From a virus (lineage: Duplodnaviria; Heunggongvirae; Uroviricota; Caudoviricetes): 64,000 bases of DNA. Both the position numbers and the translations under genes were made by a program. Shown here one piece after another: positions 20,690 to 22,156 of this stretch. The stretch is taken from IMG/VR virus record IMGVR_UViG_2917886563_000007; one strand, written 5' to 3'. The notes under the pieces were generated by a model. It did not search any database. It worked only from the letters and a program-made list of their open reading frames with translations, and was not told where the DNA came from. Each line of letters opens with the position of its first letter. Within the stretch, counting starts at the first letter, position 1.

Positions 20690-20869
20690 CAATAAAGTTT
20701 CCGGTGAGAAATGTCACCAGCATTTTGTTATGAAACGGGTATTGGCGGTATATGGGGGCGGGGCTTTAGTTATTAGGTGTCGAGAATTAATTGTTTGTAG
20801 CAATATAAAAAGGAGCGCTTAAGTCCGTTTATTTTTTTAAGCTTCATATACATAGTGGATAAAAATGAG

Positions 20870-20892
20870 AACCACCCGCTGAACGGGTGGTT
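20870..20892 (-). terminator. Rho-independent terminator for the minus-strand AT-rich moron
   Basis: aaccacccg-ctgaa-cgggtggtt hairpin; on the minus strand it is followed by a U-rich run. Confidence 0.55.
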
Positions 20893-20967
20893 TTGCGCAA
20901 GTTAAATTTTATAATTTCAGTGAATCTTTACGCTGTAATAATGCAAATGATAGTTGAAAAAACACAA

Positions 20968-21645
20968 TCAGTCGATGGATTCTCCGTAGGATGCAACTGC
21001 CTGAGCGACGCAAAAACGATCAATACACTCTATTTCTCCATAATCACGCAGGCAATAATAAGTATTATTGTCTTTATCAAAAGCGTAAATGCTACAAATA
21101 CCCTCAAGCTCACAACTTGCGTCCCATCCACTATTAGATAACGTGCCCCATTCCTGGTAAAGCCCTGCGTTAACTTCTCGATTGATAATATGCGGTCCAC
21201 TATAGTTATCATAATCGTAACTATAGATGTCACGTGCCTCAGGAAAATTCCCGTTCATGTTTTCAATCCACGGTAAAATATCTTTAACTGAGTTATAAAG
21301 TTCAATGCTGTATTTGAAAAAACGCTTCACAATAAAAACATAGATGCCGGCAGATTTGTTTGTTGATTTATCAGTGGCGAAAATGACAAAAATCTTCCCA
21401 ACGCACTTTTCATCTACGCCCGGAAAAGTTACTGTGCCATCCTGGCTAACCGCCAGAACATTATTGTCTGCATTAGTGCTACAGGTCCATTTTACCTTGT
21501 CATTATTAATAGGGTCATTATCAATGACCATCTTGAAGGTTGCTCCTGGGAACAAACTGTTAGGGAAACAGTAACCACTCTCCATATCATTTTTAATATC
21601 ATAGATATGGCTATCAACTAACACGCCTGTAATTTTGCTCATCAT
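20968..21645 (-). CDS. Hypothetical protein of unknown function, AT-rich moron in the nin region
   Basis: About 225 aa from MMSKITGVLVD (start 21645, agagag RBS); visibly AT-rich; opposite orientation to the flanking phage genes; cysteine-rich C-terminus. Confidence 0.6.
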   Translation of the reverse strand: MMSKITGVLVDSHIYDIKNDMESGYCFPNSLFPGATFKMVIDNDPINNDKVKWTCSTNADNNVLAVSQDGTVTFPGVDEKCVGKIFVIFATDKSTNKSAGIYVFIVKRFFKYSIELYNSVKDILPWIENMNGNFPEARDIYSYDYDNYSGPHIINREVNAGLYQEWGTLSNSGWDASCELEGICSIYAFDKDNNTYYCLRDYGEIECIDRFCVAQAVASYGESID

Positions 21646-22156
21646 TGAACTCTCTTTGTTTGTTAAATAAAAAGTTTTATTCCTGAACAACGGAACACGC
21701 TGATATTAATGCAACCAATGAATTGTTGTTGTTATTTGGAGGTTATATAGTGGTATGAATGTTATTATGCGATGTCTCTGAGTGATGGGGTAAGGATTAT
21801 ATGATTCGCTTTTGAGATTTACCTATGTCAGGCGTTGCTGTTCATGTTCGTCCCCGTTGTCAGTCTTCTTAGTCTGAGCTAATGTCATCATCAATGGGTT
21901 ATCAGTTTTCTCTGAAGTTATATAATTAATTGAGCGCCATAGCACCATGGGGCATTGTTGAATTTCATCTTCAATTGATTTTCCATAATCAACTCGCCAT
22001 AATCATGTCATCGGAGCCTGAACACCTCCGGTGACTTCTGCGCTAAACGGGGACGTTTATGCGCACACACAATCTAAACTCTCTTCTCCCTTCACAGATG
22101 CAGAAATGCACCTGCGATTTTTTGCATCCAACGTTTGACCTCTGCGGAGGTGAAGC

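Follow-up and report, generated by a model that had tools for sequence, protein, structure and literature searches.

What is a lone gene, read against the direction of the early lytic operon, doing in the nin region of a lambdoid prophage? We took up this question for a viral record of the Caudoviricetes (Duplodnaviria; Heunggongvirae; Uroviricota; IMG/VR record IMGVR_UViG_2917886563_000007), of which a stretch of 64,000 nucleotides, called the window throughout, was analysed. A sequence-only reading of this DNA had drawn attention to a gene of ~225 aa on the minus strand at 20968-21645. The reading frame is real (225 codons plus a stop), conserved, and under purifying selection. We are highly confident of its identity on two counts taken together: its product is a free-standing receptor-binding tip equivalent to invasin D4-D5 and intimin D2-D3, and it is carried on a mobile cassette. 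The gene's job is probably in conflict between phage and bacterium or between bacteria. The best explanation overall, in which this cassette encodes a cytoplasmic adhesin tip that sequesters a protein of competing elements, is a tentative one.

Fold and cellular location of the protein

A Pfam search with the protein gave a single match, Invasin_D4 (PF21764), which is below threshold (17.9 bits, E 0.0044; gathering cut-off 27 bits). Two relatives exceed this cut-off (P0024, 33.4 bits; P0038, 33.7 bits), and P0018 and P0021 have precomputed, unmarked Invasin_D4 matches. An AlphaFold2 model built on a 21-sequence alignment (predicted local distance difference test 86, predicted template modelling score 0.83) opens with a beta-sandwich that extends to about residue 117 and continues as an alpha/beta domain. 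Compared with the PDB by Foldseek, invasin (1CWV) came first, with an E-value of 1e-11 and a query-normalised template modelling score of 0.73 over all 225 columns, and the intimin fragment 1F00 came second (E 4.5e-6). A profile made from the family alone matches the invasin sequence in D4 at E 4.8e-5, and when distant relatives are added to the profile the alignment to invasin spans both D4 and D5, with an E-value that is inflated by the autotransporter tails then included. Those distant relatives, found in a search of 1.84 billion representative proteins, are the C-terminal ends of large exported inverse autotransporters. An example is P0041, a protein of 936 aa with LysM, IAT_beta, Invasin_D3, Big_1 and Invasin_D4 domains. 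Together, the structure match, the sequence profiles and the autotransporter-tail relatives argue that the protein is a free-standing adhesin tip, at about 20% identity to invasin. The sequence-only reading had thus been right to call the N-terminal part immunoglobulin (Ig)-like, and its statement that no homologue was recognisable no longer holds, since remote-homology and structure searches lead to the invasin/intimin tip.

The Ig-like domain comprises residues 1-118 (21292-21645, minus strand), is equivalent to invasin D4 and is highly conserved. It is followed by a C-type-lectin-like domain of residues 119-225 (20971-21291, minus strand), which is equivalent to invasin D5 and has variable loops at residues 135-155, 175-184 and 201-213. 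The EPN/QPD and WND sugar/Ca2+ motifs of canonical C-type lectins are absent from the protein. Among viral predicted structures, Foldseek found single Ig-like (Big_2) domains and no two-domain analogue.

As had been claimed, the protein shows no visible signal peptide, nor a membrane segment: its N-terminus, MMSKITGVLVDSHIYDIKNDMESG, is charged, and no 19-residue stretch exceeds a Kyte-Doolittle mean of 1.08 (no dedicated predictor was applied). Homologues start at the residue equivalent to the start of the window protein. In exported relatives, one cysteine follows the tryptophan of the first lectin-domain helix and a second lies 4-6 residues from the C-terminus, whereas the window family has Ile/Val and Ser/Phe at these two positions. 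By the HMMER alignment invasin Cys907 (chain position 413) is paired with Ile127, and the disulfide lost relative to invasin is Cys907-Cys982. Both cysteines are also missing from the signal-less stand-alone proteins P0024, P0035 and P0038. The absence of both disulfide partners from every signal-less stand-alone protein examined fits folding in a reducing compartment. With no signal peptide, no barrel and no disulfide cysteines, the protein is predicted to be made, and probably to fold, in the cytoplasm. The cysteine-rich C-terminus noted in the sequence-only reading proved to be a property of one allele and not of the family: only Cys184 of the five cysteines in question (Cys178, 184, 198, 207 and 212) is invariant in 21 homologues, and the sole invariant cysteines of the family are Cys81 and Cys184.

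A mobile cassette and its genomic contexts

The gene lies in a cargo cassette at 20735-21974 (no strand assigned), low-GC DNA that is missing from the related E. coli prophages L015 and L016, which have both flanks. By direct blastn, homology to these prophages stops at 20734 and restarts at 21973/21975, so that the AT-rich insert described earlier is confirmed and its size becomes 1.24 kb instead of ~1.4 kb. GC is 0.34-0.39 over 20750-21950 and ~0.50 on either side; for the gene itself it is 0.39, against 0.48 for the whole window. Left-side homology with E. coli prophages ends at 20734, and the sole stretch near the cassette matched by megablast, run on 5,426 complete E. coli genomes and 50,697 phage records, is 21975-22160. 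This stretch, which holds a 33-aa open reading frame and the ybcN promoter region, is conserved backbone outside the insert.

Copies at unrelated sites are homologous from ~135 bp upstream of the ATG to ~200 bp past the stop, and this cassette (~135 bp leader, gene and terminator) is an autonomous mobile unit. In prophages it occupies an identical slot in two backbones, one with O/P-type and the other with DnaB-type replication genes, and five IMG/VR viral contigs carry copies that are 100% identical. On the chromosome of E. marmotae and E. ruysiae it is found at a fixed site between ybcH and emrE-folD, and in E. whittamii at a site adjoining fliE. Further copies are located on a Rep3 plasmid-like contig, on a 6.5-kb Rop-type plasmid (L009-L012) from Escherichia sp., and on an island (P0018) that also holds TacAT, HipBA and Fic/Phd as well as genes for an omptin, an autotransporter and an integrase. 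The recurrence of the cassette in unrelated contexts, together with the other cargo held between the same prophage flanks (see below), supports the earlier view of an independently acquired cargo gene. Its neighbours change from context to context, and scanning them with PADLOC and Pfam gave nothing consistent that could be called a conserved partner gene. Several related prophages hold a second paralogue, 42-44% identical, near the integrase end; the window has one copy only.

The family is small. Among 5.8 billion clustered proteins it forms 23 clusters, all from Escherichia, nearly all 218-225 aa long and 52-98% identical, and a hidden Markov model search of the 1.84 billion representatives returned 39 proteins at E <= 1e-3, four of them at E <= 1e-30. 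The gene is present in none of the 5,426 complete E. coli genomes by megablast or blastn, in which only the backbone flanks match, and tblastn of the protein found nothing in the 50,697 phage records or in 72,556 plasmid records. A scan of JGI metagenomes added five loci, all close relatives. NCBI lists the exact window protein in unclassified Escherichia strains (RZM96079.1 of Escherichia sp. E10V10 is an example) under the label 'hypothetical protein', which all database entries of the family that we saw bear. Species-representative genomes with a copy are those of Escherichia sp. E1V33 (three copies), E. ruysiae and E. whittamii (two copies), and the P0008 cluster comes from E. marmotae, on hundreds of contigs. 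Neither a stand-alone, signal-less tip of the invasin type nor any of these accessions turned up in our literature searches. Within their reach, a cytoplasmically made, mobile, single-gene adhesin-tip cassette is new; the fold and the moron concept are known.

The leader that travels with the gene (21649-21783, minus strand) is a putative promoter region and is still alignable in plasmid copies whose proteins are ~55% identical. It contains a TATAAT-like box, a Shine-Dalgarno-like run AAAGAGAG at 21651-21658 and a second in-frame ATG one codon upstream of the start, at 21648. A 6-bp inverted repeat, TATTCC-N8-GGAATA with a TTCC-N8-GGAA core, lies at 21680-21695, ~45 nt upstream of the start codon. 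In an alignment of the window with L001, L007, L009, L013, L014 and L018-L020, RNAalifold folds it into a hairpin with six pairs, one of them compensatory; its role might be that of an operator or of a small hairpin in the leader. The gene runs against the early lytic operon, and the window has no further minus-strand gene upstream of it; any transcription would therefore have to begin in its own leader, and from this arrangement we infer that it is expressed independently. SOS/colicin-type regulation was considered and is ruled out by the lack of a LexA box in all 13 upstream regions searched.

Downstream of the gene, and as had been proposed, an intrinsic terminator hairpin was found on the gene's strand at 20870-20892 (minus), with 10 pairs, six of them G-C, followed by CTCATTTTT. 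The region has five terminator-like sites against 1.1 expected from shuffles, and the hairpin core CCGCTGAACGGGTGG is retained in the chromosomal copy L001. Because TTTT also follows the hairpin on the plus strand, the same structure may slow rightward early transcription.

The remaining part of the prophage cassette, 21784-21974 (no strand assigned), is gene-free by annotation, identical in prophages L003 and L029-L033, and not common to the chromosomal copies. A rightward promoter-like site (21899-21926, plus strand; TTATCA-16-TATAAT, 10/12) faces orf33 and ybcN. An Rfam scan of 20500-22300 gave no match.

The flanking genes are those named in the sequence-only reading, with a Bro-N gene on the left and nin genes on the right. 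The left neighbour (20084-20689, plus strand) is convergent with the cargo gene, encodes a protein with Bro-N (PF02498, 1.9e-13) and P22AR-C (PF10548, 1.7e-15) domains, and occurs without the cargo gene in E. coli prophages. On the right (22059-22612, plus strand), the 33-aa orf33-like frame (22059-22160) overlaps the start of ybcN (22157-22612), whose product is YbcN/NinB-like. Thousands of E. coli prophages share this orf33/ybcN flank at 92-98% identity, as does phage 82, in which the matching stretch is annotated with orf33, -35/-10 signals and a ribosome-binding site; L015 and L016 have a 102-nt hypothetical coding sequence at the position equivalent to the orf33-like frame. The order of the lambdoid early region, O, P, ren-like, Bro-N, cassette, orf33, ybcN, ninE, ybcO, rusA, ylcG-like and Q, matches the annotation of L003, L015 and L016. 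Identical flanks hold a HEPN-domain gene and a hypothetical gene in E. coli ETEC1720, the HEPN protein matching a PADLOC candidate model, and a holE-like pseudogene with two hypothetical genes in strain 09A19CPO009. The slot cargo of L015 and L016 is co-oriented with the early operon, and cassette sizes are similar (1.1-1.3 kb). Different cargo between identical flanks marks the Bro-N/orf33-ybcN junction as a cassette-exchange site, which is hereby documented for DLP12-type prophages; in DLP12 itself the slot cargo presumably comprises emrE, ybcK, ybcL and ybcM.

Several other features of these prophages were recorded. The segment upstream of orf33/ybcN (window 21999-22127) is duplicated, at 85-91% identity, upstream of Bro-N in two E. 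coli prophages (L015 3223-3351; L016 4374-4515), and the repeats that bracket Bro-N and the cargo slot there may be a recombination linker for cassette exchange. A perfect 48-nt direct repeat at 9837-9884 and 55509-55556 resembles the 3' end of a tRNA gene (GGTTCGACTCC...CACCA). The corresponding 5' half is missing in front of both copies, and ARAGORN found no tRNA in the window; the two copies are probably the attachment sites bounding a prophage of ~45.6 kb. The related prophage L037 ends adjoining proA. A second AT-rich patch (24350-25600, GC 0.33-0.39) lies downstream of the Q-like gene and contains a CspA-family cold-shock gene (24761-24976, plus strand), with a CSD gene at the equivalent place in L003. 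Tandem repeats at 47614-48093, with periods of 21 nt (11 copies) and 189 nt (2 copies), would presumably give a tail-fibre-like gene product with a 7-residue repeat.

Constraint and variation along the tip

Start and length of the protein are conserved over at least 20 alleles, down to 42% identity, and the C-terminal motif AQAVA[SF]YG is conserved as well. Selection was gauged from dN/dS (omega) by the pairwise Nei-Gojobori method. The N-terminal domain is under strong purifying selection in every comparison (omega 0.12-0.33). For the C-terminal domain omega is 0.3-1.1 between mobile alleles, and for its three loops 0.6-1.4, values that are confounded by saturation and recombination. When the chromosomal copies of E. 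marmotae are compared with those of E. ruysiae, constraint is seen on both domains (C-domain omega 0.27-0.30). Column entropy is lowest at residues 31-45 and highest at 136-150, 166-180 and 196-210.

How the C-terminal domain diverges is illustrated by the IMG/VR prophage L035, whose gene lies at 6000-6678 of that sequence. Most flanking bins differ from the window by ~1-3 nucleotides per 100 bp, and 62 of the 68 nucleotide differences within the gene are in the C-domain. In codons, the C-domain has 32 nonsynonymous and 10 synonymous changes, against three and three in the N-domain. The raised synonymous count shows that a divergent C-domain was imported by recombination rather than mutated in place. 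An origin through a diversity-generating retroelement (DGR) was rejected: there is no template repeat involving the gene in the 64-kb window (a reverse transcriptase was not searched for).

These data bear on the view that the gene has no current function and is a detached adhesin fragment, hitch-hiking on mobile DNA and decaying. Several copies are indeed pseudogenes, the family is tiny, and C-domain omega comes near 1 between mobile alleles. Such a view is nevertheless very unlikely, as a decaying fragment does not agree with a start, length and leader conserved over those same alleles, with the low omega of the N-domain, or with the constraint on both domains between E. marmotae and E. ruysiae. 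Moreover, the absence of the disulfide cysteines throughout the family and from three other stand-alone proteins looks like a shared adaptation. That the gene is simply a fragment of a broken adhesin gene is ruled out by the conserved start, length and leader together with purifying selection.

The variable positions can be placed on the invasin tip. Invasin Asp811 aligns with the sole variable patch of the N-domain, residues 22-26, and Asp911 with the loop after the first helix (~131-133), just before the variable stretch 135-155. Asp811 and Asp911 are the two residues implicated in integrin binding, and the alignment suggests that it is the ancestral ligand face that varies. This coincidence, and the fact that the closest solved structures are integrin-binding and Tir-binding modules, would suit a factor directed at an animal host, a soluble tip that after release binds integrins, a Tir-like receptor or mucosal glycans and alters colonisation. 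We consider it highly improbable that the protein acts in this way. It has no export route and has lost the disulfide of its exported relatives, its identity to invasin is low, and the Asp911-equivalent residue is not conserved; in addition, the family belongs to Escherichia cryptic-clade species and is found in none of the complete E. coli genomes.

Possible functions and comparison with known systems

The explanation that we prefer would join these results as follows. An autonomous cassette would have been inserted into the exchangeable lambdoid slot between the Bro-N/P22AR-C gene and orf33/ybcN and would be transcribed from its own leader, most plausibly in the lysogen. The Ig-like domain would provide a constant scaffold, and the variable patches, swapped by recombination in the C-domain, would form a specificity surface. 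As there is no catalytic domain, the protein should act purely by binding, and it might protect the lysogen by sequestering a polymorphic protein that belongs to a competing phage or other mobile element. The sequestration step, taken by itself, is rather doubtful; it is drawn by analogy with TaiEcA of phage phi80. TaiEcA (orf63) is the 204-aa product of a single gene on the strand opposite to its neighbours, in a prophage moron position, expressed in the lysogen (PMC11364771). It blocks tail assembly, and its target, judging from phages that evolved to escape it, appears to be the central tail fibre J (PMC11364771). No enzymatic domain is reported for it. The window gene is likewise single, small (225 aa against 204), on the opposite strand and without a catalytic domain. 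The TaiEcA sequence, however, reads as helical and not beta-rich, and its locus is near the packaging end of phi80 and not in the nin slot. Membership of the window protein in the Tai group is rejected by hhalign (probability 0.1%).

Several observations weigh against the preferred explanation. This same hhalign comparison shows no homology to TaiEcA, and PHROGs, PADLOC and NCBIfam scans of the protein gave no match; in PADLOC-DB 2.0, no family is matched at E <= 1 by the window protein or at E <= 0.01 by the L037 paralogue. The fold is known from extracellular adhesion, and synthesis in the cytoplasm would fit release at lysis equally well. For a defence gene it is also unusual that a chromosomal copy is apparently widespread among E. 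marmotae assemblies. Loop omega is about 1 and not clearly above it, so that positive selection is not demonstrated, and what the raised synonymous divergence shows is recombination. In none of three contexts did the gene's strand yield a consensus sigma-70 promoter. Some copies have decayed: the second copy of E. whittamii has TGA in place of Trp166 (L020 8001-8678), and E1V33 has a 140-aa fragment and a frameshifted remnant (L021 8224-8646; L022 ~8000-8450). These decayed copies lie in genomes that also hold intact ones. Finally, the pairing of a sister branch of the family with an ADP-ribosyltransferase gene speaks for toxin biology and not for phage exclusion.

This sister branch, P0024 and P0084, consists of proteins of 232 aa that exceed the Invasin_D4 cut-off and are 42-45% identical to the window protein. 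On two independent contigs their genes lie 60-70 nt upstream, on the same strand, of a gene for a Scabin-like ADP-ribosyltransferase of 422-424 aa, which has no signal peptide and retains the ExE motif. The two-gene units are at L024 299-2335 and L049 9001-11034, the latter adjoining an integrase and an autotransporter gene. Lectin domains occur fused to the pierisin and MTX-type relatives of Scabin. The pairing raises the possibility that the family supplies a receptor-binding (B-like) or neutralising component for the transferase or another toxin, the window copy being an orphan, and the position of P0018 among toxin-antitoxin modules is in line with it. We regard this role as distinctly improbable for the window protein. 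No transferase gene adjoins the window copy or any copy of its subfamily, and tblastn found no Scabin-like transferase in the window or the other compared loci; both proteins of the pair lack signal peptides, and no partner is conserved across contexts.

Another explanation would take the protein out of the cell. A lectin-like antagonist or adhesin set free by lysis would escape the burst cell and bind a polymorphic surface receptor or glycan of competing Escherichia, killing or blocking them. The fold relatives of the protein are extracellular receptor binders, and the family is confined to one genus. One copy, on the 6.5-kb Rop-type plasmid, stands beside genes for a 731-aa signal-less protein with a C-terminal GH19-like domain and, directly after it, a 116-aa DUF4087 protein with a signal peptide; from their domains these two look like a peptidoglycan-hydrolase toxin and its immunity protein. 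There is precedent in Pseudomonas, where LlpA bacteriocins act on BamA and lipopolysaccharide. Release of this kind is unlikely, however, for the window protein. Its gene is antisense to the lytic early operon and not coupled to lysis genes, its upstream region has no LexA box, unlike those of colicins, and the fixed chromosomal copy has no adjacent lysis module. The missing EPN/QPD and WND motifs also count against a lectin. The LlpA lectin-like bacteriocins themselves have a constant and a specificity-determining domain, both of lectin type, lack a signal sequence and an immunity gene, and are low-GC prophage or tailocin cargo with dissimilar paralogues in one strain (PMC6240691), a profile that the window family matches. 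Their fold, by contrast, is MMBL (B-lectin, PF01453) and not Ig plus C-type lectin, the window protein has no MMBL match in Pfam and no homology to LlpA, and they belong to Pseudomonas whereas the window family belongs to Escherichia.

More broadly, we suggest with caution that stand-alone cytoplasmic adhesin tips may form an undescribed class of binding-only conflict proteins on Escherichia mobile elements. Their lectin-like tip would capture a phage component or target rivals after lysis, and one branch would be the targeting or neutralising partner of a DNA-type ADP-ribosyltransferase.

Parts of our preferred explanation have counterparts in other known systems. Like the variable proteins of DGRs (e.g. 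Mtd), the window family concentrates its variation in C-type-lectin-like loops; it differs from them in having no template repeat in the window and in alleles that vary by indels and by all base types, with synonymous changes that are in keeping with recombination. The other slot cargo of DLP12-type prophages shares identical flanks and a similar cassette size with the window cassette, and its genes are unrelated to the window gene. The closest comparison is with invasin of Yersinia (1CWV, D4-D5) and intimin of enteropathogenic E. coli (1F00/1F02, D2-D3), whose Ig-like plus C-type-lectin-like superdomain is common to all three proteins. Relative to these adhesins, the window protein lacks the signal peptide, LysM, the IAT beta-barrel (PF11924) and the Big_1/Invasin_D3 stalk, has both disulfide cysteines replaced, and is longer both in the hairpin at residues 12-24 and in its C-terminal segment, which is variable. 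It is also encoded on a mobile cassette and not by a chromosomal adhesin gene. A textbook extracellular receptor-binding fold, freed from its anchor, its disulfide and its export signal, thus appears to have been redeployed for another job.

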